Assembly (NCBI GenBank): GCA_965231215.1
Contig: OZ246423.1
Coordinates: 896,001-960,000, forward strand
From: Candidatus Altimarinota bacterium
GTDB taxonomy: Bacteria; Patescibacteriota; Gracilibacteria; UBA4473
DNA length: 64,000 bases
Direction: 5' to 3'
Made by a program: the position numbers and the translations under genes. This document shows, piece by piece, positions 13,827 to 26,903 of the stretch. The stretch's first letter is position 1, and each line of letters opens with the position of its first letter. Under the pieces are notes generated by a model. The model did no database searches, was not told where the DNA came from, and saw only the letters and a program-made list of their open reading frames with translations.

Positions 13827-14741
13827 ATGTCCAGTTTTTCTGTTATCATTCCCAGCTATAATGAAGGTGCGTGGCTTGAACGCACTGTTATGGGCGTACT
13901 GGAGAATACCAATTACCCAGAGTTTGAGATCATTATTGTAGCCGATAACTGCACCGATAATTCTACCGATTTTTGTAAACAAAAATCTATTCCCAACGTA
14001 GTGCTCTTGGAAACTTCACACAATTTGGGAGCGATAGAAGCTCGGAATTATGGCGCTTCTATTGCCGAGGGAGAAAACTTAGTCTTTATTGATGCTCATG
14101 AAGTTCCGGAAACCGATAATTGGATTTCGGTGCTATTTGACTTGCTTGAGAAGCCTAATACGGGAGCGGCAACAATACCGATTTCAAGCTTCGAAGACCC
14201 TCAGAGGATTGGGTATGTGTATCGCCTTAAGGATTTGGCGCTAGAGCCTGCTTGGGAGTCGAGAGAATCAAAACATTTACCATTAGTACCGGTTATTCCT
14301 GGGGGGTGTTTTGCCATTAAAAAATCTGTATTTATCGAAACAGGAGGGTTTAATCCTTTGTTAAAAAAGTGGGGGAGAGAGGACCTAGAATATTCGCTTC
14401 GTTTGTGGCGAATGGGATATGATTTGAGGTCGTCAAAGGCAGCTAAGATTGCTCACGCATTTAGCCATAAAAGAGCATTTGAGATTAGTTGGGATCAGGT
14501 GGATCATAATATTTTGCTTATTGCTGATTTATTGTTTTCCTCAGAGGCGTGTAAAAAAGTTTGTACACATTTAAAAAAGATTCGTCCACAGAATTATGAT
14601 AAAATTTATCAACAATTATTAAATAATGAAGCCTACCAAGCTTACAAAGCAAAACTACTGCTAAAGCGTAGTTTTGAGGACTATAAGATCGAGTTTAAAG
14701 ACTATTTACCAAAAAATTATTCTCTTATACCACAAGTATAA
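13827..14741 (+). CDS. Glycosyltransferase family 2
   Basis: SVIIPSYNE, ARNYGA, FIDAH, GGF...WGRED.EYS.R. Confidence 0.88.
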   Translation: MSSFSVIIPSYNEGAWLERTVMGVLENTNYPEFEIIIVADNCTDNSTDFCKQKSIPNVVLLETSHNLGAIEARNYGASIAEGENLVFIDAHEVPETDNWISVLFDLLEKPNTGAATIPISSFEDPQRIGYVYRLKDLALEPAWESRESKHLPLVPVIPGGCFAIKKSVFIETGGFNPLLKKWGREDLEYSLRLWRMGYDLRSSKAAKIAHAFSHKRAFEISWDQVDHNILLIADLLFSSEACKKVCTHLKKIRPQNYDKIYQQLLNNEAYQAYKAKLLLKRSFEDYKIEFKDYLPKNYSLIPQV

Positions 14742-15979
14742 AACATTCCAAGCCCTATATTTTTCCAGTCATTATCACTTCCAACTCTTAATGGAGTAGT
14801 GCTATAGCCAATATAACTAGGGACGATTGATCCAAGCTCTCCATGGTTTCCACTTCCCCAACACCATAAAGCACCATCATTCTTTATCGCACAAGAGTGA
14901 GAGTATCCTGAAGCAACGCTTTCCCAAGTGTTCTCACTTCCTACCTGTGTAGGAACCCTCTTACTACCTGTATAGCGTTTTCCCTGACCAAGCTGTCCAT
15001 AGTGATCTCCCCCCCAACACCACAAAGTATTATCTGTTTTTATCGCACATAAGTGTCTTTTTCCTATACCAATACTTTTCCAAGTATCGGTACCAACCTG
15101 AACGGGAGTACTTCGATCTATAGCATCATTCTGTCCTAGTTGTCCATAACGGTTATCTCCCCAGCACCACAAGGTATTATTATTTTTAGTCGCACAGGCA
15201 AATTTATTTCCAAGGTAAATATTTTTCCAATCGTTATCGCTACCAACTTGCACAGGGCTCGGTTGGTTATCTGATGGATCATTACTACCAATTCCAAGTC
15301 TTGAATCAGAATTACTCCCCCAACACGACAAAGTATTATCAGTTGTTATTCCACAAGTATGATCTAATCCTGCTGAAACATCTTTCCAAGTACCAGGTAA
15401 TCGCTTAGGGTAATGTTCATACTCATGAATTCCTCCTTTTCTGCCTATTCCTAGCTTCCCAAGGTAAGTGTGTCCCCAACACCATAACGTATTATCATCT
15501 TTTATTGCACAAACATGTCCAGCTAAACCAAATTCTATAGTATCTGCCAGACTACTTAAGTATGAAGGACTCATTCCCCAACATTGAAGATTATTTCCAC
15601 TTGAAATAGCACAAAAGGAATTCACCCCAATTCCAACTTTGTTCCAACTACTACTTTCAAACTGCTCAGGCTCATGAGTATTTGATAATCCTGGAAGAGG
15701 TGAGCTTCCCCAGCACCAAAGAGCCTCTGGAACATGGCATGCCGAAAATTCAATATTTATGGGTTTATTATTCAGAAAAGAGTGCCATCCTGTGGTGGTT
15801 TGAGTTGGAACAAATCGTTCTTTCCCATCCAAGCTCTTAATTTTTTTACAAATTCCATGAGCATTAATTATTTTATCGGCTGTTCCAATACGGAATCCAG
15901 TAAGAATGGTATTAATTGCAAAAACCTCGTCAAAAAGAAGCAATAACGAAAGTAAGAAAAATAATTTTTTTGTTCTCAT
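14717..15979 (-). CDS. Secreted RCC1/BLIP-II-like beta-propeller protein
   Basis: Signal peptide; about 7 repeats of H.CAIK.DNTLWCWG.N.YGQLG; start overlaps the stop of the upstream fibre gene. Confidence 0.85.
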   Translation of the reverse strand: MRTKKLFFLLSLLLLFDEVFAINTILTGFRIGTADKIINAHGICKKIKSLDGKERFVPTQTTTGWHSFLNNKPINIEFSACHVPEALWCWGSSPLPGLSNTHEPEQFESSSWNKVGIGVNSFCAISSGNNLQCWGMSPSYLSSLADTIEFGLAGHVCAIKDDNTLWCWGHTYLGKLGIGRKGGIHEYEHYPKRLPGTWKDVSAGLDHTCGITTDNTLSCWGSNSDSRLGIGSNDPSDNQPSPVQVGSDNDWKNIYLGNKFACATKNNNTLWCWGDNRYGQLGQNDAIDRSTPVQVGTDTWKSIGIGKRHLCAIKTDNTLWCWGGDHYGQLGQGKRYTGSKRVPTQVGSENTWESVASGYSHSCAIKNDGALWCWGSGNHGELGSIVPSYIGYSTTPLRVGSDNDWKNIGLGMFYTCGIRE

Positions 15980-17853
15980 AGATTCATAACTTCCTTTAAT
16001 TTATTAATTTGTTCTTGTTGATTTTCAATTAATTTCTGTTGTTGATCCGTTAGTTCTTTCATTTCTTTTAAGGCCTCAACAAGTATGGCATTTATATTTC
16101 CATAGCGAACCGACTTCAGCCCATCCACCTCGCTTGTTTCTACGAGTTCTGGTAGGACTCTTTCAACATCTTGAGCAATGAAACCAATAGAATTTTTATC
16201 AGAATTATTCCATTTAAATTTAACACCTTCTAATTGCTGAATAATTTTTATTGGATTTTTGATTTTCAAAATGTCTTTTTTCAAACGCTTATCAGAGGAG
16301 TAAACAAAATCTGTTGCTAGAACTGTTCCTTCAACATCTAGCTTCTGAGAAGGGGCCGTCGTCCCAATCCCGACATTACCCGTATGCGCAACCGTCATGG
16401 AAGGTGTCCCGCCATAATAGGAATTACCAGCAGCACCATCTACATAAAACCGAATATCCCCTGCATTGGACACCAAACGTATCCAGTTGCTTCCACCTTC
16501 AGAATAAAGCCCTAAATCAGTACCAGAAGCCAACCCCGCTTTGTTGATGATGCCCTCTCGAACCCTCAAACCACCACTACCAATATCCAACGTAGCACTC
16601 GGCGTCGCCGTCCCAAGACCAATATAACCATTACCACCATCAAGCGTAAAGTGCGTATTTTCCCCAACACCACCACCCACATTAATCTTGAATTTATGAT
16701 TATCTGACTGATCCAGTCCTACAGAATACCAAGCATTCCACGGATCATGGAAACGAATTTGCGAGTCAGCATCATTATTCTCAACCTCGATATTCCCGCC
16801 GCGTATCTCTAACTTATTATCCGGATCTGCCGTCCCAATCCCGACATTGCCGCCGACAAGCGCCATGTCAGTTGCAACAGAACGTAAGATAGCCGTATTA
16901 TTACTATCTGTTGTTATATCAAGAATTCTTTGGTCACCCGCTTTATCATTATTAAAAATACTAAAAAATTGATTGTCATCTAGACTTCCTGCTGGCGCAG
17001 CGCCAAGAGCCCTGCCTGCCATTATTATCCCTGAAACATTCAACTTCGCATTAGGAGACTCCGTCCCAAGCCCGACATTGCCATTCGCTGCAATACTCAA
17101 ACCATGATACCAATTGGTACCATCATTATTATAGATAGAGAGCGCATTCGGCGCACCATAAGAAGATGGTCTCTTAACAAAATCTGTAAAGTGTGAGCCA
17201 CCATTGCTACTTTGCAAACGTAACGTATGGCCAGTATTATCCGGCGAAAGAACGTGCAACGGCAAACCAGGCGTCGCCGTCCCAATGCCAACCCTACCGG
17301 TTTCTGTCACTCGCATAAGTTCAGCCCAGTTACCGCCTGGGCCAGCGGCATTTTTTCCGATGACGAGGGCTCGGTTATCATTATCATCATTATTCCAGTC
17401 CATAGAAAGATAAACATTGTCTTCCCCATTTAGCTCTAGAGCTCCATTACTGTCATAAATAGTGCCGCCTCTTACCAGCAGTGTACCATCTATTTGAAGA
17501 TCTCCGTCTTCATCAATGTTGGCTTTATCTGCATCGGCTCCTGTTCCAATCTGAAAGAGTTTTTCATTGGCGGTAGGAGAGGCTTTGTGAATTGAAAAAT
17601 GTGCCGGAAAAGTATCGGTTCCAATACCGACTTTCCCATTAAGATAATAGAGGTCTTGACCGCTGAAATTCCAAACCTGATAGCCTAAAATATCAACAGC
17701 GGTAGAGAGGCTTAGGAGATCAGTTCTTACCTTGTTCCAATCTGAGGCCCGAATAAGTTCTCCACTATTGACAGTGGGAGTGGTTATTGTCACCGCAGCG
17801 TAAGAAGTATTTGAGAAACTGAACAACAGCCATGCAAGCAATAGAGTTCTCAT
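15976..17853 (-). CDS. Secreted tail-fibre-like adhesin A (GNVGIGT repeats, C-terminal peptidase S74 chaperone domain)
   Basis: Signal peptide; repeated G[NKR]VGIGT..P...L junctions; SSDKRLKKDI...IGFIAQDVE.VLPELV...Y..I.A.LVEALKE plus coiled coil. Confidence 0.85.
   Translation of the reverse strand: MRTLLLAWLLFSFSNTSYAAVTITTPTVNSGELIRASDWNKVRTDLLSLSTAVDILGYQVWNFSGQDLYYLNGKVGIGTDTFPAHFSIHKASPTANEKLFQIGTGADADKANIDEDGDLQIDGTLLVRGGTIYDSNGALELNGEDNVYLSMDWNNDDNDNRALVIGKNAAGPGGNWAELMRVTETGRVGIGTATPGLPLHVLSPDNTGHTLRLQSSNGGSHFTDFVKRPSSYGAPNALSIYNNDGTNWYHGLSIAANGNVGLGTESPNAKLNVSGIIMAGRALGAAPAGSLDDNQFFSIFNNDKAGDQRILDITTDSNNTAILRSVATDMALVGGNVGIGTADPDNKLEIRGGNIEVENNDADSQIRFHDPWNAWYSVGLDQSDNHKFKINVGGGVGENTHFTLDGGNGYIGLGTATPSATLDIGSGGLRVREGIINKAGLASGTDLGLYSEGGSNWIRLVSNAGDIRFYVDGAAGNSYYGGTPSMTVAHTGNVGIGTTAPSQKLDVEGTVLATDFVYSSDKRLKKDILKIKNPIKIIQQLEGVKFKWNNSDKNSIGFIAQDVERVLPELVETSEVDGLKSVRYGNINAILVEALKEMKELTDQQQKLIENQQEQINKLKEVMNL
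16364..16616. repeat. 253-bp internal cassette identical to 19152-19404
   Basis: Base-by-base comparison showed no differences; encodes ATPSATLDIGSGG...AHTGNVGIG. Confidence 0.95.
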
Positions 17854-17944
17854 ATTTATTTTTTTTCACACTTTATAATACAGGTATTTGTTTTTAGTTT
17901 AAAGTTAAATTTTCTGACTTGTTTTTTTAAAATTTTGGATGGAT
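17276..17944. repeat. ~670-bp near-identical direct repeat (5' constant region plus promoter) of 20304-20971
   Basis: Only a handful of substitutions seen; covers the first ~192 codons and ~90 bp upstream. Confidence 0.95.
17862..17914 (-). promoter_or_regulatory. Conserved fibre-gene promoter (copy 1)
   Basis: Minus strand TTTAAA-17 nt-TATTAT-aaagtgtg; identical at 20890-20942 and related at 26904-26959. Confidence 0.55.
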
Positions 17945-18019
17945 ATCAGCAAAATTCTCTGTTGATAAACTTTATCTGATCATTGTATCAGAAAACCCCT
18001 AAAAAATAAAGTGAGGATT

Positions 18020-20881
18020 CTATTGATTTTCCAAAGCTTCAACACGAGCTTTGAGGGCATCATTTTCAGCCTTGAGCTCTTGAATTGCTTTGACGAGGAT
18101 AGGCGCCATCTGACCATAGGCCAAAGACTTCGTGCCCATCTCATCATCCGCCGTGCTCACCAGCTCCGGCACCAAAGCCTCAACCTCTTGCGCCAAGAAA
18201 CCAACCTGATGCACTTGCTCCGCCCGCTGCGCCTCATCGATCCAATCAAACGCCACCGGCTTCATCGCCATCACCGTATCCAAACCATAATCCAGATCCA
18301 CCACATTGGTCTTCAACCGAGCATCAGAAAAAGTCGACCAAGTCGACCCCGTATTCGCCCCGCCCCCCCCACCAAGTGAGGACTGAGCCACACAATTACC
18401 TCCAGAAGTATCACAAATTTGATTCGTGCGTACTCCTCCACCGTCAGCTCGAATACCCGCCCCTGAATAAAGCCACTTATTTCCATAAACTCTCAACCAA
18501 GTAGAATCGGTCATATGGAATCCTCCTCCATAATTTTGGAAATAAATTCCATTATTTCCATTCACTCGAAGCCAATCTCCTAGAATCTGAACTCCATTAT
18601 GGATGAAAATACGCCCACCAAATGTAGCATCGTTATTTTCCATATTTATAGACAAGGGCCACTGTCCATTGTATTGACACCAATTATTACCCCCTCCAAC
18701 GCCATCATTACCACAACCTCGTAAAAAATACATTACATTAGCATTCATATGTATCATGGCCGAACGATGATCTACATCTCTAAAGTAAATGGTTGGGTAA
18801 TTACTTCGAATGGTTAACCCATTGGCATATCCATCGCCTCCATTCCCAACCTGAAGTTTGGTAGTTGGGCTTGAAGTTCCAATCCCGACATTGCCCTGCA
18901 TACCAAAATAACTTAGGTTAGGCCTAAAAACGGCATACTCTGTATATTCTCCGGGATTATCTCTCCATCTAAAAATCCTTAACCCTTGATCATAATTATC
19001 AATGGTAATTCGCCCATTTCTATTGCTTTCTGGATCAGCATTCATTAACACCATTTCACCTCCTTCAGTAGCTGTGTTTTGAGAGTCTATTCTCAAATAA
19101 TTGGTTCTCAAATCCCCAGCTACCTGTAGTTTTGAGGTTGGATTAGCGATTCCAATCCCGACATTACCCGTATGCGCAACCGTCATGGAAGGTGTCCCGC
19201 CATAATAGGAATTACCAGCAGCACCATCTACATAAAACCGAATATCCCCTGCATTGGACACCAAACGTATCCAGTTGCTTCCACCTTCAGAATAAAGCCC
19301 TAAATCAGTACCAGAAGCCAACCCCGCTTTGTTGATGATGCCCTCTCGAACCCTCAAACCACCACTACCAATATCCAACGTAGCACTCGGCGTCGCCGTC
19401 CCAATCCCGACATTACCAGAAGGTTTAATAGTTACTTTTTCAGAAAATGAACCAAAACCAATATTAGGGGCTAAGCCTTCAGTATTCCAATGTCCTAATC
19501 TTATATCTGTTGTAGAGCCTGCTGCAATAGCCGGATATTGCCCATTCTTTTTCACAAACCCTAAACGAGAATTAACACCAGAGTCAGCTCCCATATAAAT
19601 ATCCTCTCCAGTGGCTACTACATTTCCTCCAGCTACTAATTTTGTCTTGGTCCCAAAAGGGCTCGGAGATGTAGCAGTACCAGCCAGAACGATACCCCCT
19701 GTTGGGTTAAGCAGAAGATTCCTGGCGTTATTAGTCGCATTAAACTCTTTATGGTAAGCCTGTAACCAAGGCCCTCCATCAGCAACACCTATATCCATAA
19801 CATTTGTACTATTTACAGTCTGAAATCGAGCTATAGCCCCAGGACTAGGGGTAGTAGCATCTGGCAGCGATTGTCCAGACGATGTTACATGTAATTTTTC
19901 CAATGGAGTATTAGTCCCAATCCCGACATTGCCAGAAGCCCGAGTAACGTTGCTACCACTTTCTGTCCAGGTAGAACTCCCGCCACCACTACTCAAACTT
20001 CCAGCGGGAACACAGTTACCTCCATTTTGATCACAGTACTCTGTAGCGCCTATTTTCCCTTCAACATCTAGCTTTAGCCCCGAGGAGGGGCTGATTGTAC
20101 CAATCCCGATATTCCCATTTCCTAGATTCAAGGTCATCATATCACCGCCACCACCAGTAGAAGAAAATCTAGCTGTATCCTGAGCTCCTGCATAAGTTTT
20201 TATTCTTAATGAGTCTGTAGCATTACTAATAATTAAGCCGTCATCACTAGCTCCACCATTAACTTTCATATCTCCGACCACCTGAAGCGCATGAGATGGA
20301 TTTGCCGTCCCAATGCCAACCCTACCGGTTTCTGTCACTCGCATAAGTTCAGCCCAGTTACCGCCTGGGCCAGCGGCATTTTTTCCGATGACAAGGGCTC
20401 GGTTATCATTATCATCATTATTCCAGTCCATAGAAAGATAAACATTGTCTTCCCCATTTAGCTCTAGAGCTCCATTACTGTCATAAATAGTGCCGCCTCT
20501 TACCAGCAGTGTACCATCTATTTGAAGATCTCCGTCTTCATCAATGTTGGCTTTATCTGCATCGGCTCCTGTTCCAATCTGAAAGAGTTTTTCATTGGCG
20601 GTGGGAGAGGCTTTGTGAATTGAAAAATGTGCCGGAAAAGTATCGGTTCCAATACCGACTTTCCCATTAAGATAATAGAGGTCTTGACCGCTGAAATTCC
20701 AAACCTGATAGCCTAAAATATCAACAGCGGTAGAGAGGCTTAGGAGATCAGTTCTTACCTTGTTCCAATCTGAGGCCCGAATAAGTTCTCCACTATTGAC
20801 AGTGGGAGTGGTTATTGTTATCGCAGCGTAGGAAGTATTTGAGAAACTGAACAACAGCCATGCAAGCAATAGAGTTCTCAT
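18020..20881 (-). CDS. Secreted tail-fibre-like adhesin B (GNVGIGT repeats, PilV-like segment, C-terminal peptidase S74 domain)
   Basis: Same N-terminus as A; many GNVGIGT junctions; FSDARLKTNV...VGFLAQEVE.LVPELV...LVKAIQEL. Confidence 0.85.
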   Translation of the reverse strand: MRTLLLAWLLFSFSNTSYAAITITTPTVNSGELIRASDWNKVRTDLLSLSTAVDILGYQVWNFSGQDLYYLNGKVGIGTDTFPAHFSIHKASPTANEKLFQIGTGADADKANIDEDGDLQIDGTLLVRGGTIYDSNGALELNGEDNVYLSMDWNNDDNDNRALVIGKNAAGPGGNWAELMRVTETGRVGIGTANPSHALQVVGDMKVNGGASDDGLIISNATDSLRIKTYAGAQDTARFSSTGGGGDMMTLNLGNGNIGIGTISPSSGLKLDVEGKIGATEYCDQNGGNCVPAGSLSSGGGSSTWTESGSNVTRASGNVGIGTNTPLEKLHVTSSGQSLPDATTPSPGAIARFQTVNSTNVMDIGVADGGPWLQAYHKEFNATNNARNLLLNPTGGIVLAGTATSPSPFGTKTKLVAGGNVVATGEDIYMGADSGVNSRLGFVKKNGQYPAIAAGSTTDIRLGHWNTEGLAPNIGFGSFSEKVTIKPSGNVGIGTATPSATLDIGSGGLRVREGIINKAGLASGTDLGLYSEGGSNWIRLVSNAGDIRFYVDGAAGNSYYGGTPSMTVAHTGNVGIGIANPTSKLQVAGDLRTNYLRIDSQNTATEGGEMVLMNADPESNRNGRITIDNYDQGLRIFRWRDNPGEYTEYAVFRPNLSYFGMQGNVGIGTSSPTTKLQVGNGGDGYANGLTIRSNYPTIYFRDVDHRSAMIHMNANVMYFLRGCGNDGVGGGNNWCQYNGQWPLSINMENNDATFGGRIFIHNGVQILGDWLRVNGNNGIYFQNYGGGFHMTDSTWLRVYGNKWLYSGAGIRADGGGVRTNQICDTSGGNCVAQSSLGGGGGANTGSTWSTFSDARLKTNVVDLDYGLDTVMAMKPVAFDWIDEAQRAEQVHQVGFLAQEVEALVPELVSTADDEMGTKSLAYGQMAPILVKAIQELKAENDALKARVEALENQ
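19152..19404. repeat. 253-bp internal cassette identical to 16364-16616
   Basis: Direct comparison. Confidence 0.95.
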
Positions 20882-20971
20882 ATTTATTTTTTTTCACACT
20901 TTATAATACAGGTATTTGTTTTTAGTTTAAAGTTAAATTTTCTGACTTGTTTTTTGAAATTTTGGATGGAT
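20304..20971. repeat. Second copy of the ~670-bp constant region plus promoter
   Basis: Direct comparison with 17276-17944. Confidence 0.95.
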
Positions 20972-21113: not shown

Positions 21114-24100
21114 TTAGTTTTTACGGCAATAGAGTACGGCGACATTCTTTGGTCGGGTTTCAGCGCCACCAACGGCGTTTGATGCATTCGCAATGACGCC
21201 GTTATTATAGCCTCGTTGATAATGCCCGCCAAAGGACCAACCGCTGCCATTATAGGAATTTTGCGGAATATGCTCGTGTGACTTAAATTCATCTTCTTGC
21301 GTGCTTCCCGGCGCTCTCACCCCGCCAGGGTCAATGGTTCCGGTGCTGTCAATACCCCGCAAGAAGCGTCCGCGTGCAGCGGTATATTCGCTCCATCCAG
21401 CAGGGCAGGACGTCAAGTCAAACGCCTGAATCTCTCCAGAAATTCGGCCGCCACCCGAACTGCCGCCGGAGCTGCCGAAATAGCCACAACGGCCCTCATC
21501 ACAAATATCGGCCAAATCCACACCGGCACCATCCGTGGCACCACAACGGGTGCTTAAACCACTAATACCAGAAATATTTCCAGTTCCATCAAAGGCGATA
21601 TACCGATTAAAATTCCCTACAATTGCATACCAAACCGAGTCATTCTTGTGTTCCGACATAACCAGAATCTGACCCCATGTTCCCGAGCTGTAATTACACA
21701 TCAAGTAATCCGGCCACTTCGAAACACCCGCAGGCGCGACCGGTAACTTCAGTGTCGACGCAAGATTAGACCCCGCGATAGCATCAGAAATAGCCGCCCC
21801 CGAACTCGAACCCGACCCGCCGCCGGGTACAACTTTATATACCTTATAATCCACCGTGCCGCCGCAGCCTGCATTGTTGTAGATGGTCATGGAGATTTTA
21901 CTCGAGCCATCCGTTCCAAAGGTGGCGTACATATAGCCGCAGCCTGCCGTGCTATAGGTCGGTTCAAGTGCGGCGATGTATTCGTAACCGTTTGCTAGCC
22001 CCGTTACGGCAGAGGCGTATGAATTACCTGGGACAGTGGCGGTACCGGACGCTACTTCTTCCAGCCCCAGTGCGCTGCCACCCCCCGAACTCGACCCGCC
22101 GCCACCGAAATAGATGACTTTACCTTCGCTGATGAGCGTATCTATCGATTTGCCGTTACAGTCTGAGCCGGTGGCATGCGTCTGATAAGCCGCAGTCTGC
22201 GCCTTAGTCGTGGGATGGAAGATGAACTGCGCATTGTCCGAATCACTCGGGTCGGAATTCGCGACATAATAGACGCCGTTGGTTGCGTGGTCATGATCGG
22301 CGATAAACATTCGTGTGTAGCCATTTTGCGTACATTTTAGCGCATCCGGCCAGCCGGATTTGAACACACCGGTTGGTGTGCTCGAACTCGACGAACCCGA
22401 GCTGCCGCCGACTTTAAAGCCGGAGAAATGGGATTCCCTTACGGTTCGTGCGGTGCCGCCATTGTGATAGACAATGACTTCAACCACATCATTGGCATTG
22501 AGATAGGCTATTCCAGAACAGCTAAATGCTCCTGAATTGCCTGACACTGTGGTGTTATGTCGCGCATAACAAATACTATCTGCTGCCGCGGATTTGCCAG
22601 CATGATTCTTCTGAATTCTAATGATTTGATCGGAGCCAGAGGCCTCAATTTCAGCAGAGGCGTTAAATTGGTAAAAACCTGTTGACGGCACGGTAAATTT
22701 GCCGGTTGATGTATCGTAATTGTTGCCTCCCTCCTCCTGTATCTCGGTCGCAAAAACAAGGTCGGACCATGTATTGTGTGTGGCAGTTTGTGTCCCATCC
22801 CCAATCGCCTGGAATGAAACAGCCGACCCCCCACCCGAACTCGACGAACCCGACCCGCCGCAGTTTTTCTGGAGCGATGTGACGGCAGAGTCGGTGCTAT
22901 AACTTGCTGTCCCTTCAGTACGATAGCGACGCGTACCCTTAGCGCTGCTTTGAATCGTATATTCAAAGTTAGTGCCAGAACTCGCAAAATCCACGAAGAA
23001 TATCTCAGCAGCTTTTACTTTATAGGCATACATAATATTGCCACTACCCTGCTCTGCACGATAGTCGCAGCTTGTATCAAAACTATTAGTATCACTTAGG
23101 CTGACCTCTTCCCAGCCCCCACCCAAACTCGACGAACCCGATCCGCCGCTTCCCCATTCCTTCCAGGCAATGGTTTTGAACTGTAGGGTCTGCGCATATT
23201 GTTGGTCGTTGGAGGCGACTTCAAACAAGGTCGTGTGATAGCTGAACATGATATTGGTGGCGTCGTAGCCCAGAGCGGAGCCGCGCTTGGTGGCACCGCC
23301 GTTGAATTGGTTGCCGTCGGAGCTGAGATGCTGGGTGATATTGCCGGAGCTGTCCTTTAAATACCCGACCGCAAAGACCGGCTCGGCCCCGAACCCATGC
23401 GCGAAGTTGCGGGTATTCGTCCCGGCTGCCAGCGTCACCCAGCCGGAATCGAAGTCCGGCGTGCCAAGCGCACCGCCGGTGCCACTGCCGCCCGAACCCG
23501 ACCCGCCGCCGGACATTTTGAAGCCGGAGAAATGGGTGTGGTAGGCGCCTGCGCTTCCATACGGGGTTTCAGCGCCGGCAGCCCGAATGTCGATCTGGTC
23601 GCCCGCTGTCAGTTCCAGAATGAAGGAGGCATCGCTTCGCCGATATCTAACACTGCCGCCAACGCCTCCGTAGGATGCGATCAGCATGTTGACGCCATTT
23701 TTATAGACCCAGTAGTCTGAGTTGTCTGTATTGTTCTGCCCCAGAATCTCATAGGAGAAATGATAGGTGCCGTCGGACGGGGCGACATAGCGGTTGTTGG
23801 TGAGGTCGAAATCATCACCGATATTGGTCAGCGCCAGATCCCAGGTCACGACATCACCGGTAGACGCGGACTGATGTGCGGTTTTGACGACGGTGAAGGC
23901 GGATTCCGGCGTCGACGAACTTGATCCACCGCCAGAGCTGCCGCCGCCGAGCATGTAGCCGTAGAAGAGACTATCGGCTGGATGTCCAAGATTCACACGC
24001 CCGCGATTGCTGAAATAGATACTGAGTTCATCATTCACCGCCGCATCAATCAACACACATCCAGAATTTGTTTCTGCGTTCGGATTGTTATATTGGCTGG

Positions 24101-26840
24101 ACTGTCCACCATTAACAACAGCGCCATTCTTATGAATTTCCGTGTGGAACTCAGCATTATTATGATTGTAATATTGCCAACAGACATTGTAGATCCCCTT
24201 CGTCGGCACCGTATAAATCCCCGTCGTAGCATCAAAACCACTATCCGTGTCCAAATCCACCGTGTCATAAACCATGGCCCCCGCACCACTTTGCACCGCC
24301 GTCTGACGCGCTGAAAACGCCACCGGAGAAGCAGAATCTGATCCACCGCTAGACCCCGACCCGCCGCCGGAACCAAGGAGATACGCTTTCATCGTCGCGG
24401 CAACAGACGGCGTAGCATCGTTGCTATGTGCAATAACACTAAGATAATCGGTCGTACCGTTCATCTCCACAACTTGTGTAATACTGTGATAAGCATCACT
24501 ACCATTAAGGTTTACATATCCAGAATCGTTAGCAACAGATGCACCATTTTTGCTAATAGTCGTAGAACACCACTTATTCGCATCGATACTCCGGCAAACA
24601 ACATTGGCTATCACGAGATATTTACCGGCAACATTCGGGGTAAAACGCCCTGTCGCCGTGTCATGCAAATTTCTGGAATCGGAACCCACTGAGTCAAGAA
24701 CAATCTCTGTCCATGCATTCTGCGGTATCGACTTCGCCGCCGAAGTTGCAACATGAACATAAACCTCCTCCCCCGAAGAACCACCGCTAGACCCCGAACC
24801 GCCGCCGGAGATTTTGAAGCCGGAGAAGTGGGTGTTTGCGCCTTCCAGATTGATCGAGGCGCCGTTAGTATTATACCCAGAAACCTGAACCACATCTCCT
24901 GCAGCCAGTTCTACCACGGCAGAGCAGGATGGTGCGTGGTCAAGGTTTGAATTTTTACCTCTAGCACTGCTGAGACAGAGCGTTTCGATATTGCCACCAC
25001 CCAAATCCTTATAGATGCGTATCAACAGACCATTATTATTGGAGCTGCCATTCATCAAACTCGACGTAAATAGATAGGTACCAGTACTTGGGGCGGTAAA
25101 TTTTCCGGTTGAGGCGTTGTAATTTGAACCGCCATTTTGATGTTGTATCGTTGGAAAGATTGTATTTGCCCAGGTCTGTGAGGCAATTGATGTAGTCGAA
25201 CCTGTCGCCCTGAATGAAATTTCTTCACCCGAACCGCCCGAGCTGCCGCCGCAGTTTTTCTCGACTTGATTGACCGTGAAGCTTCCTCCCCAAGAGGCAC
25301 CCGTTCTGAGATTGTAGCTATTTTTGCTGCCTTTGGGGATGCGGAACTCGATCTCCGTACCGCTGGAATTCCATTGGGTAAAGTAGGCGTAATCGGCAGC
25401 GACCAATGTCGCGTAAAATTTTTGTCCGCCTGAGGGGCTATCCAATGTCGTACGATAATCGCAGGCAGTGTCAAAGTCTGCCGTGTCGCTTAGGCTGACC
25501 TCTTCCCAGCCGCCGCCACTACTCCCTCCACTCGCTAGGGATCCCCAAGTTGATCCATCACAGACTTGGACTGCCCCTCCTTGGTATCGGATTGTTCCGG
25601 CTTTCGTGTTGTCACAGGCAGCTGTATCATCTCCAATCTTGACTCCTCCAGCTATATCTAATAGCGCTGCTGGAGTAGCGGTTCCTATCCCTACTTGACC
25701 ATCTTCATCGACTCTCATTAATTCTACCCAATTGTCTCCTGGGCCCGGACTATTCTTTCCTATAATTAAGGCTCTTGTGTCTACATCATTGTTATTCCAG
25801 TCCATTCCGATGTAAATGTCATCTTCTCCACTTAATTCTAGGTTTCCGTAACTATCATAAACATCGCTGCCTCGTACCAATAAATCTCCATCCAAAAAGA
25901 CGTCTCCGTCTTCATCTATGGCGAATCTATTATCGTCTCCACTAATGCCTACCTGAACCAGTACTTGGTTGGCCGCAGGAGTATCCTGGTAGACATAAAA
26001 GTTTGCTCCAGGACTAGTAAGGCCTATCCCGACCTTTCCACTACTATAATGAATGTCTCCTGAGGGGCTGCCCTCTTCCCACTTTCCGCCTCCTAAAACT
26101 TCCCAACTACTTCCATCATAATAAAAATATTCATTACTTGAAGTATTGTAATATGTATCTCCTGCATCTGGGCTCTCTGGCGGAGTTGTATCAGTCACGG
26201 AGTTACTAATTTCTACCCAGCTACTTCCATTATAAAAATAGATTTGATTATCTGTTGTATTATAAAAAACATCTCCTTCACTGCCACTGCCTGGATTACT
26301 CCCCCCACGCTGAATAGCACTTGCGCCGCCTCCGCTTGCAATGCTGGAGGCTACGTCCGAGGGCACTACACAATTATTTCCCAAAGCATCACAGTATTCT
26401 ACGGCTCCCACTTTTCCTGCTATGTCTAGTTTTAGTCCTGGACTTATACTCGAGGTACCAATACCTACATTACCTAAGGGGTAATTAATATCACTAGAGG
26501 ATTTTATCCAATACTGTTCTGGAAGATTGGTCAATTGTGATCCATCTCCTATAAATCTAGTGGCTTTTACGTTTCCGTTTACCTCTAGTTTTTGGGTTGG
26601 TGAAGCTGATTCTAGGCCAATTCCAAATCGATCATCACCTAAAGCGCTGGTGCCTTGATCATTTCGTTTAAGCCCCTTCACTACATTTACTAAAGTATTT
26701 AGCTCTGTAGCGGTAAAAGCATCTCCCGTTTCTTTTGCGGGTATAGACGAGGCATCATATTCTGCGGCTTTAACTGGCTCAAATACAGTCAAAACGGTCA
26801 TAAGTACTATCACGCAAACGCTAAGAGAGATGTGGCGCAT
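21114..26840 (-). CDS. Giant secreted mosaic fibre/adhesin C (1908 aa): fibre stalk, ~12 Gly/Ser-linked modules (several C1q-like), terminal tail-collar-like domain
   Basis: Signal peptide; GNVGIG stalk; modules with TGKFTAP..G.Y.F and HFSGFK (C1q-like); C-terminus GEIQAF...CPAGW...GRFLRG...GSTQEDEFKSH.H...ETRPKNVAVLYCRK typical of phage tail-collar proteins. Confidence 0.8.
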   Translation of the reverse strand: MRHISLSVCVIVLMTVLTVFEPVKAAEYDASSIPAKETGDAFTATELNTLVNVVKGLKRNDQGTSALGDDRFGIGLESASPTQKLEVNGNVKATRFIGDGSQLTNLPEQYWIKSSSDINYPLGNVGIGTSSISPGLKLDIAGKVGAVEYCDALGNNCVVPSDVASSIASGGGASAIQRGGSNPGSGSEGDVFYNTTDNQIYFYNGSSWVEISNSVTDTTPPESPDAGDTYYNTSSNEYFYYDGSSWEVLGGGKWEEGSPSGDIHYSSGKVGIGLTSPGANFYVYQDTPAANQVLVQVGISGDDNRFAIDEDGDVFLDGDLLVRGSDVYDSYGNLELSGEDDIYIGMDWNNNDVDTRALIIGKNSPGPGDNWVELMRVDEDGQVGIGTATPAALLDIAGGVKIGDDTAACDNTKAGTIRYQGGAVQVCDGSTWGSLASGGSSGGGWEEVSLSDTADFDTACDYRTTLDSPSGGQKFYATLVAADYAYFTQWNSSGTEIEFRIPKGSKNSYNLRTGASWGGSFTVNQVEKNCGGSSGGSGEEISFRATGSTTSIASQTWANTIFPTIQHQNGGSNYNASTGKFTAPSTGTYLFTSSLMNGSSNNNGLLIRIYKDLGGGNIETLCLSSARGKNSNLDHAPSCSAVVELAAGDVVQVSGYNTNGASINLEGANTHFSGFKISGGGSGSSGGSSGEEVYVHVATSAAKSIPQNAWTEIVLDSVGSDSRNLHDTATGRFTPNVAGKYLVIANVVCRSIDANKWCSTTISKNGASVANDSGYVNLNGSDAYHSITQVVEMNGTTDYLSVIAHSNDATPSVAATMKAYLLGSGGGSGSSGGSDSASPVAFSARQTAVQSGAGAMVYDTVDLDTDSGFDATTGIYTVPTKGIYNVCWQYYNHNNAEFHTEIHKNGAVVNGGQSSQYNNPNAETNSGCVLIDAAVNDELSIYFSNRGRVNLGHPADSLFYGYMLGGGSSGGGSSSSTPESAFTVVKTAHQSASTGDVVTWDLALTNIGDDFDLTNNRYVAPSDGTYHFSYEILGQNNTDNSDYWVYKNGVNMLIASYGGVGGSVRYRRSDASFILELTAGDQIDIRAAGAETPYGSAGAYHTHFSGFKMSGGGSGSGGSGTGGALGTPDFDSGWVTLAAGTNTRNFAHGFGAEPVFAVGYLKDSSGNITQHLSSDGNQFNGGATKRGSALGYDATNIMFSYHTTLFEVASNDQQYAQTLQFKTIAWKEWGSGGSGSSSLGGGWEEVSLSDTNSFDTSCDYRAEQGSGNIMYAYKVKAAEIFFVDFASSGTNFEYTIQSSAKGTRRYRTEGTASYSTDSAVTSLQKNCGGSGSSSSGGGSAVSFQAIGDGTQTATHNTWSDLVFATEIQEEGGNNYDTSTGKFTVPSTGFYQFNASAEIEASGSDQIIRIQKNHAGKSAAADSICYARHNTTVSGNSGAFSCSGIAYLNANDVVEVIVYHNGGTARTVRESHFSGFKVGGSSGSSSSSTPTGVFKSGWPDALKCTQNGYTRMFIADHDHATNGVYYVANSDPSDSDNAQFIFHPTTKAQTAAYQTHATGSDCNGKSIDTLISEGKVIYFGGGGSSSGGGSALGLEEVASGTATVPGNSYASAVTGLANGYEYIAALEPTYSTAGCGYMYATFGTDGSSKISMTIYNNAGCGGTVDYKVYKVVPGGGSGSSSGAAISDAIAGSNLASTLKLPVAPAGVSKWPDYLMCNYSSGTWGQILVMSEHKNDSVWYAIVGNFNRYIAFDGTGNISGISGLSTRCGATDGAGVDLADICDEGRCGYFGSSGGSSGGGRISGEIQAFDLTSCPAGWSEYTAARGRFLRGIDSTGTIDPGGVRAPGSTQEDEFKSHEHIPQNSYNGSGWSFGGHYQRGYNNGVIANASNAVGGAETRPKNVAVLYCRKN
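26071..26762. repeat. ~690-bp constant region of fibre C, inverted paralogous copy at 63058-63749
   Basis: Colinear and ungapped, high identity by eye (roughly 85-90%). Confidence 0.9.
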
Positions 26841-26903
26841 TGGTCTTCTTTTTTAATTTATTTTTTTGAGAAAAGTATACCATTAATAGCTTAAAGGAAA
26901 TCT

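Follow-up and report, generated by a model that had tools for sequence, protein, structure and literature searches.

Candidatus Altimarinota lies within the Patescibacteria group. From one genome of this lineage (GenBank assembly GCA_965231215.1, 1,326,059 bases; hereafter G000), a stretch of 64,000 nucleotides (nt), positions 896,001 to 960,000 of contig OZ246423.1, was analysed (the window; coordinates refer to it unless genome positions are specified) and compared with four congeneric genomes (G001–G004). Two tandem genes of the window, fibre genes A and B, encode modular fibre proteins in which a short DNA word recurs codon for codon at the boundaries between modules, and the subject of this study is the bearing of this word on the exchange of modules. 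Fibre gene A (15976–17853, minus strand) encodes 625 amino acids (aa) and fibre gene B (18020–20881, minus strand) 953 aa. Both proteins open with a signal-peptide-like N-terminus, as judged by eye, followed by an N-terminal constant region common to the two; in A this leads to modules A2–A5 and a tip with a Peptidase_S74 chaperone, and in B to modules B2–B6, a 291-aa tip and Peptidase_S74. The Peptidase_S74 domain (PF13884), a C-terminal intramolecular chaperone and autoprotease of the endosialidase type, is found at residues 520–571 of A (E = 3e-15) and 852–908 of B (E = 1.2e-15), both above the curated cut-off, and these are its sole matches in the whole genome. A and B are probably secreted fibres of the phage-tail-fibre type, for which trimer formation would be expected from family membership.

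The two proteins were cut into modules at the pattern G-x-[VI]-G-[IL]-G, which yields an N-terminal constant part in two pieces, modules of 61–172 aa and a tip of 134 or 291 aa. Each shaft module opens with the motif G-N-V-G-I-G-T-x-x-P-x-x-K-L-x-V. An earlier note on this DNA, made from the letters alone, had described the modules as unrelated. This description stands for most module bodies, which are without significant similarity to one another outside the shared blocks considered below, but not for B2–B6 (z = 7.9), B3–B7 (z = 13) and A6–B3 (z = 6.6), nor for three more pairs with z of about 4. Six modules are 70–91 aa long and match the unit repeated in Bd2133, a Bdellovibrio fibre of solved structure, so that they are probably very distant repeats of a single structural unit. 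In phmmer searches Bd2133 (8OND) was matched by both A (E = 5.9e-12) and B (E = 8.8e-07); A alone further matched other solved pieces of Bdellovibrio MAT fibres (8OML, 8OJN and 8OL4), and it also matched a phage long-tail-fibre tip (6F45) and MyRF (7DC3). In the printed alignments the matches to Bd2133, 8OML and MyRF fall on G-x-V-G-I-G/N-T-x-x-P-x-x-x-L-x-V, with three repeats of Bd2133 aligned to modules of A across G-x-V-G-I-G-T-x-x-P-x-x-x-L. The match to 6F45 rests on the S74 chaperone region, and the S74 regions of both 6F45 and MyRF are matched by A and B. A capping-loop consensus for MAT fibres, V-G-G/N-pi-x-x-P-x-x-x-L, is given in the available text of PMC10769870. Because the solved fibres align over the motif and this consensus is related to it, the conservation of amino acids at the junctions is, judging from these alignments, structural.

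At the DNA level, the word CCAATCCCGACATTRCC has six exact matches in the window, compared with none in any of 100 dinucleotide shuffles (mean 0.00, maximum 0). All six recur where the earlier note had placed them: at 16364–16380 (junction A j5, between module Y and tip A, where the word encodes GNVGIG), 16835–16851 (A j3), 18879–18895 (B j6, between module B6 and tip B), 19152–19168 (B j5, between module Y and B6), 19401–19417 (B j4, between B4 and module Y) and 19917–19933 (B j3). Since all matches lie on the plus strand as the word is written, the coding strand is the minus strand; read in codons, the word in full is GGY AAT GTC GGG ATT GG[G ACG]. The two close variants expected near 17065 and 20100 were located at 17066–17082 (A j2, GNVGLGT, one mismatch) and 20100–20116 (B j2, GNIGIGT, two mismatches), both on the minus strand, the latter at the end of module X. 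Junction A j4 (16609–16629, minus strand), at the start of module Y, reads GYIGLGT in other codons. When up to three mismatches are allowed, 16 matches are found against 0.21 expected. There is no further exact copy on either strand of the genome, all six residing in A and B. The copies at 16364 and 19152 each terminate a 253-nt segment shared by A and B at 100% identity and thus belong to one duplicated segment, so that at most five copies are independent. Among the six copies, the 60-nt upstream flanks are 27% identical and the 60-nt downstream flanks 38%; the word stands as a sharply bounded island of identity amid sequence that cannot be aligned. Its 8-mers occur mostly near expectation throughout the genome, GGGATTGG alone being about three-fold over-represented, and its 10-mers occur almost exclusively in the fibre copies. 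A reading of the word as an uptake signal or a Chi-like site was rejected, as its sub-words, GGGATTGG excepted, are not enriched genome-wide beyond these copies.

Codon usage in 531 long open reading frames (ORFs) of the genome gives GTC for 12.8% of Val, GGG for 23.2% of Gly, AAT for 65.4% of Asn and ATT for 59.7% of Ile, from which the four-codon core AATGTCGGGATT (AAT GTC GGG ATT) is expected at a frequency of 0.0116, or at 0.026 if usage in the motif elsewhere is taken instead. Among the 18 GNVGIG hexapeptides in long frames of G000, this core is used in all six of A and B and in none of the 12 in other fibre genes, where AAT GTA GGT ATT (26454 and 59630), AAT GTA GGC ATT (63346) and AAT GTA GGG ATT (63781) are found; the earlier observation that the same peptide takes other codons in fibres C, D and E is thereby borne out. 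In ten loci from G001–G004 the core appears in one of 32 GNVGIG peptides, and that copy lies inside a block shared with A. A Fisher test of 6/0 against 1/43 gives 4.4e-7, and five independent copies would agree on any one codon combination with a probability of 1.2e-6, although both figures overstate independence, since 16364 and 19152 form one duplicated segment and several of the comparison genes are paralogues. The uniformity (6/6 against 1/44 elsewhere) thus exceeds what codon usage predicts. A comparison within the six copies, which needs no independence between them, is also available: none of the four core codons varies synonymously, whereas the codons of all five adjoining conserved residues (G1, G6, T7, P10 and L14) vary by a hand count. 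In the 3′ half of the motif, TTGGGACG preceded by A or C occurs in 7 of 12 cases in A and B, in 5 of 5 in two G004 genes and in 2 of 13 in the remaining G000 fibre genes.

The rarity of GTC and GGG and the exact position of the word at module starts would also suit selection on mRNA or translation, in which the rare GTC-GGG pair slows or tunes translation at module boundaries for co-translational folding. The same peptide, however, is encoded by other codons in 12 of 12 other cases in G000 and in 31 of 32 at the congeneric loci, and a translational role leaves the ends of identity blocks at the word, described next, unexplained. With other codons in 43 of 44 cases elsewhere, we regard translation-level selection as very unlikely.

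Nucleotide comparison (blastn, in gene positions) was carried out among A, B and two genes of G004, namely G4a (635 aa, syntenic with A) and G4b (624 aa, elsewhere in that genome). Positions 1–578 are 99.1% identical between A and B, and A 1238–1490 equals B 1478–1730 at 100%. With G4a, A 1219–1878 matches 1249–1908 at 98.6%, B 561–782 matches 1050–1271 at 98.6% and B 1464–1730 matches 1254–1520 at 97.4%; G4a 59–1299 matches G4b 65–1305 at 99.6%, reaching 24 nt beyond a motif. In window coordinates (all minus strand), the first block comprises 578 coding nt and about 90 nt upstream and spans 17276–17944 in A and 20304–20971 in B (99% identical), ending 2 nt past the GRVGIGT motif at 17278–17298 in A and at the corresponding motif at 20306–20326 in B. 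Module Y (16364–16616 in A; 253 nt) is 100% identical to B 19152–19404 and 97–99% identical to G4a. Its identity with B and G4a begins at TTGGGACG in A j4; seen from B, identity with A and G004 starts inside the word at B j4, and identity with A stops inside the word at B j5. Module X (20097–20321 in B; 225 nt), with motifs on both sides, is 98.2% identical to G4a and 97.8% identical to G4b. Taken as sequence comparisons, the 669-nt and 253-nt blocks show recent duplication or conversion between A and B.

An automatic tally places the nine block ends inside the S74 fibre genes at 3, 0, 1, 0, 0, 24, 2, 0 and 0 nt from a GxVGIG motif. Eight of the nine are therefore within 3 nt, a zone covering about 7–9% of each gene, and all lie within 0–24 nt. 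In side-by-side alignments every switch between identity and noise occurs within the 21-nt motif or a few nucleotides beyond it. Three further block ends lie outside the shaft: upstream of the start codons of A and B, in the signal-peptide region of G4a and G4b, and near the far end of an RCC1-like gene adjoining A. Crossovers are also seen at motif versions that lack the word (GRVGIGT, GKVGIGT, GYIGLGT and GNIGIGT), where the partners share just 8–9 nt, TTGGGACG or ATTGGGACG. The crossover site is thus motif-coding DNA in general, of which the exact 17-mer is the most uniform form. The suggestion of the earlier note that the fixed word is a likely crossover site is accordingly upheld as far as motif-bounded breakpoints are concerned; the exact 17-mer is not required, and no recombinase gene lies nearby.

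The blocks shared with G004 stand out against a lower background. Between G000 and G004 the fibre N-terminus is 75.5% identical, neighbouring genes are 73–83% identical and an 8-kb housekeeping stretch is 65–70% identical, against which three modules reach 97–100%. Module X occupies a different position in the G004 genes from that in B. One shared tract (14685–16634, minus strand; 97–100% identity in 150-nt steps) comprises the RCC1-like gene, tip A and module Y, and one of its ends lies at A j4.

Contigs from three public runs (X1, X2 and X3) were also compared. The runs come from one study and X1 may be the source sample of the assembly, so that they offer no independent replication; parts of the stretch lacking contig cover in X2 and X3 count as no evidence. 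One X2 contig (depth 44) joins 16612 to 20100, and one X3 contig (depth 69) joins 19400 to 20100; both joins, for which the B j2 motif serves as the alternative join site, put module X beside module Y at motifs, as in G4a. In X1 the depths are 794 for module X, 727 for module Y and 540 for tip A, against 226–230 for the modules specific to A or to B. Loose contig ends match flanks of the G4a type, as judged by eye. From the module depths, the alternative joins and these loose ends it follows that a G004-like relative lives in the same samples. No public contig joins two exact copies of the word, a result that counts neither way, as contigs drop rare variants.

The presence in the same runs of a relative carrying modules X and Y and tip A raises the question of whether the tandem arrangement and the repeated junctions could be a chimera of co-occurring strains produced during assembly. 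The equal X1 depth (226 to 230) of the modules particular to A, of those particular to B and of the beginning of the following gene argues otherwise, as do X1 contigs bridging junctions of B (17994–19181 and 19375–20138), with the reservation about the origin of X1 given above, and an X2 contig (17276–18023) spanning the gap from the upstream region of A to the 3′ end of B. An assembly artefact is the least probable of the explanations weighed here.

On this evidence we favour short-homology recombination at motif-coding DNA, with local homogenization of the word, and put its probability at about 65%. Motif-coding DNA, as the only stretch common to otherwise unalignable modules, would act as the crossover point, and recombination there would replace, add or remove whole modules in frame. 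Exchange has taken place between the tandem genes A and B and with the co-occurring congener, in the latter case probably after DNA uptake; transformation is the presumed route. Repeated exchange and conversion confined to an island of 14–21 nt would homogenize its synonymous sites to one word within the exchange group, leaving the codons just beyond it to drift freely. Concerted evolution limited to the only stretch able to pair would thus explain the sharp edges of the word, and conversion would be the cause of its uniformity. In homology-facilitated illegitimate recombination, a long homologous anchor is combined with a short match at the other end. For the 1.95-kb tract shared with G004, an anchor of this kind on one side and a short stretch of matching motif on the other would be enough. 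The codon and breakpoint results support the view, already expressed in the earlier note, that codon fixing points to selection or homogenization at the DNA level. Nucleotide identity would on this account guide the crossover; that it causes the exchanges, as distinct from resulting from them, is what we infer.

A structural filter could produce much of the same picture. Under this explanation recombination or illegitimate joining occurs anywhere, the survivors are those chimeras whose joint lies at a module boundary and which can therefore fold into a trimeric fibre, and the word was inherited from a recent common source of the junction segments and has no role in exchange. The motif is a structural feature found also in solved fibres, with which it aligns in the repeats of Bd2133 (8OND) and MyRF (7DC3), the capping-loop consensus in the accessible part of PMC10769870 points the same way, and junctions arise even where only 8–9 nt are shared. 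Yet the block ends cluster on letters that are identical between the partners and not over the whole conserved motif of about 18 aa; inheritance with neutral drift does not predict core codons that never vary next to conserved residues whose codons do; and the module bodies beside the word cannot be aligned. The invariant core codons beside varying ones and the ends on identical letters argue against the structural filter as the whole story, and as a sufficient explanation we consider it improbable, though of the alternatives to recombination at motif-coding DNA it deserves the most weight.

Several observations tell against short-homology recombination with homogenization, in addition to the overstated independence of the codon statistics. 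The shared identity is short, at 14–21 nt, or 8–9 nt at junctions lacking the word. Lengths of 8–21 nt do not exceed the minimum that RecA-dependent recombination needs to be efficient in model bacteria, and another pathway or very rare events would therefore be required. MutS, which is encoded in the genome, would be expected to oppose recombination between diverged DNA. Selection for folded chimeras alone would concentrate the surviving junctions at the motif, and mapping cannot separate such a filter from DNA guidance, because a crossover can be placed no finer than the letters shared. Relatives do not conserve the word: across 43 genomes from the family, the 14-nt core has six copies in G000 and one in each of three genomes, and it is absent from the other 39. 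A 2667-aa gene of G002 with many GNVGIG motifs uses mixed codons, so that homogenization is not general to such genes. Finally, the close comparison draws on one congeneric genome, G004, and the runs of one study.

A dedicated site-specific system would be a different way to account for a fixed 17-mer repeated in a surface-adhesin locus, the word being the target of a recombinase, as in a shufflon or a tail-fibre invertase, or part of a diversity-generating retroelement; it even holds a 4-nt inverted pair, CAAT...ATTG, noted by eye. The copies of the word are nevertheless all direct repeats on one strand and occur nowhere else in the genome. The neighbours of the fibre genes encode ribulose-phosphate epimerase, an M50 protease, ribosomal protein L25, a family 2 glycosyltransferase, malic enzyme and an S41 protease; these are housekeeping genes, and the locus is not a prophage. 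No match to Phage_integrase, Resolvase or RVT_1 was found within the window. The matches nearest to A are Phage_integrase about 29 kb away (genome 883 kb), Resolvase about 99 kb away and RVT_1 about 585 kb away (genome 327–329 kb). Variation of the shufflon or invertase type was rejected on the direct repeats and the absence of Phage_integrase and Resolvase matches in the window, and a diversity-generating retroelement on the distance of the sole RVT_1 matches. Taken together, a dedicated system seems even less likely than selection on translation. RecA, ComEC and DprA are encoded in the genome alongside MutS.

The closest known process is the modular shuffling of T-even phages at glycine-rich motifs, and the closest known protein family is that of the Bdellovibrio MAT fibres. 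Conserved glycine-rich motifs of T-even gp37/gp38 are proposed recombination hotspots for modular shuffling, according to the available text of PMC12032242, which cites Tetart et al. (1998) and Trojet et al. (2011). In so far as that text describes them, gp37/gp38 have hypervariable receptor-binding segments parted by short Gly-rich motifs; similarly, DNA coding for a short Gly-rich motif bounds the exchanged modules in A and B, where all nine segment ends lie at 0–24 nt from it. Unlike the T-even genes, A and B are chromosomal in a bacterium of the Patescibacteria group and lie among housekeeping genes; unlike monomeric gp38, they are fibres of the trimer type ending in S74, with the junction at a shaft-repeat boundary; and unlike in the T-even account, codon-for-codon fixation of the junction word has been measured. 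In the MAT surface fibres of Bdellovibrio bacteriovorus the base is conserved whereas the tips have diversified; some of these fibres terminate in an S74 chaperone-protease, and all members have a conserved β-rich domain, about 130 aa in length, immediately behind the signal peptide (PMC10769870, in its available sections). With these sections as the basis, MAT fibres share with A and B the shaft repeat GNVGIGT-x-x-P-x-x-KL and the S74 end. Residues 20–195 of B match 14 proteins in a collection of 5.8 billion sequences, none of them named Bdellovibrio, in a search that depends on shared words and for a family whose solved structures are C-terminal only. In the text available from PMC10769870, mosaicism is treated at the level of protein and structure and recombination appears only in the methods.

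In antigenic-variation loci built of cassettes, for example vlsE of Borrelia, short DNA-conserved direct repeats bound the cassettes of a surface protein. G000 differs from such loci in having no silent cassette archive; no further copies of the B modules were found in the genome besides those in A, and the donors of modules therefore appear to be other genes and other genomes. What appears to be new here is the occurrence of such fibres on a chromosome of the Patescibacteria group, the exchange with a co-occurring congener and the measured codon-fixed island; the principle is known from phages. In keyword searches of the literature, no junction word with fixed codons was found described for fibres of this type, which is not proof of its absence in print.

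Members of the Patescibacteria group presumably live attached to other cells, and the determinants of their partner range are largely unknown. If, as seems plausible, the A and B fibres bind host cells, module exchange visible at nucleotide resolution would be a candidate route to rapid change of attachment specificity. The locus also offers a clean natural setting in which to ask if recombination is guided by short DNA words at domain boundaries or only leaves its trace in them. More speculatively, and with the odds clearly against it, the word could be more than a by-product, namely a portable linker under maintenance, whose uniformity is upheld by concerted evolution and which is favoured for trading host-recognition fibre cassettes across co-occurring species via DNA uptake and short-homology recombination, in which case sets of fibre genes sharing a word would be separate exchange groups. 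Were this so, small-genome, probably host-dependent species that co-occur would trade such cassettes across species boundaries. A different kind of variable surface gene has been described in a Gracilibacterium, in the accessible part of PMC6851277.

Beyond A and B, replacement of modules at the motif was seen in a second fibre subfamily of the genus, represented by seven proteins (P0123 and P0125–P0130; P0124 was excluded for its differing architecture). Its constant N-terminal part of about 575–585 aa yields to differing modules at the motif in all seven, and after two or three such modules the return to a constant Cys-rich tail (…GTCT.AP..SG.C.CS) also takes place at the motif in four of the seven. 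Judging from these protein comparisons, motif-bounded module replacement is wider than the local word itself. In the non-S74 fibres C to G of G000, blocks of high identity end at the motif only sometimes. The loci of G001–G003 share no DNA blocks of at least 88% identity and at least 120 nt with each other or with A and B. A metagenome-contig scan with B gave five loci, all distant, with 44–66% identity over short parts, and a genome-contig scan with A gave two, namely G004 and a match of 49 residues. A protein search with residues 190–850 of B returned 366 proteins with E ≤ 1e-10 among the 8000 candidates scored, none of them closer than the two G004 proteins.

A 1089-aa gene of G002 (locus L027, G002:C9:1-6000) has the core AAT GTT GGG ATT in four of its six GNVGIG peptides. 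Three of the four read GGG AAT GTT GGG ATT GGA, and the fourth differs in the first and last Gly codons. Two of the four copies follow duplicated modules ending in NNSEKMRIQTN. This gene was rejected as a clean parallel to A and B. Two tandem fibre genes at 961–970 kb of the genome, beyond the end of the window, encode proteins of 1241 and 1245 aa and share 94.6% identity over 4.3 kb; the four GNVGIGT motifs of each gene use four different codon sets, which contrasts with the uniformity of A and B.

The RCC1-like gene adjoining A (14717–15979, minus strand) encodes a β-propeller protein of 420 aa with WD40_RLD and RCC1 repeats. Its ATG overlaps the TGA stop of gene A (ATGA). As it lies inside the tract that is 97–100% identical to G004, this gene travels with the fibre tip, and its product may be a partner of tip A. 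Between the RCC1-like and malic-enzyme genes there is one fibre gene in G004 and three (A, B and C) in G000, so that B and C are extra at this site. Gene C (21114–26840, minus strand) encodes a fibre-like protein of 1908 aa with four C1q domains and Gly/Ser linkers between them. Its N-terminal region (about 26208–26854) is 95% identical to two fibre genes just past the end of the window, and the blocks in common with these two genes mostly do not end at GNVGIG motifs. The GC content rises to as much as 0.545 at 22–24 kb, in the region of this gene. The label Candidatus Altimarinota is often linked to genetic code 25. This code was rejected for G000, as ORFs of at least 100 aa under table 11 cover 92% of the genome, the 1908-aa gene C runs without an in-frame TGA and the TGA stop of gene A overlaps the next ATG. 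TGA serves as the stop codon in 92 of the 795 long frames, and G000 reads well under table 11.

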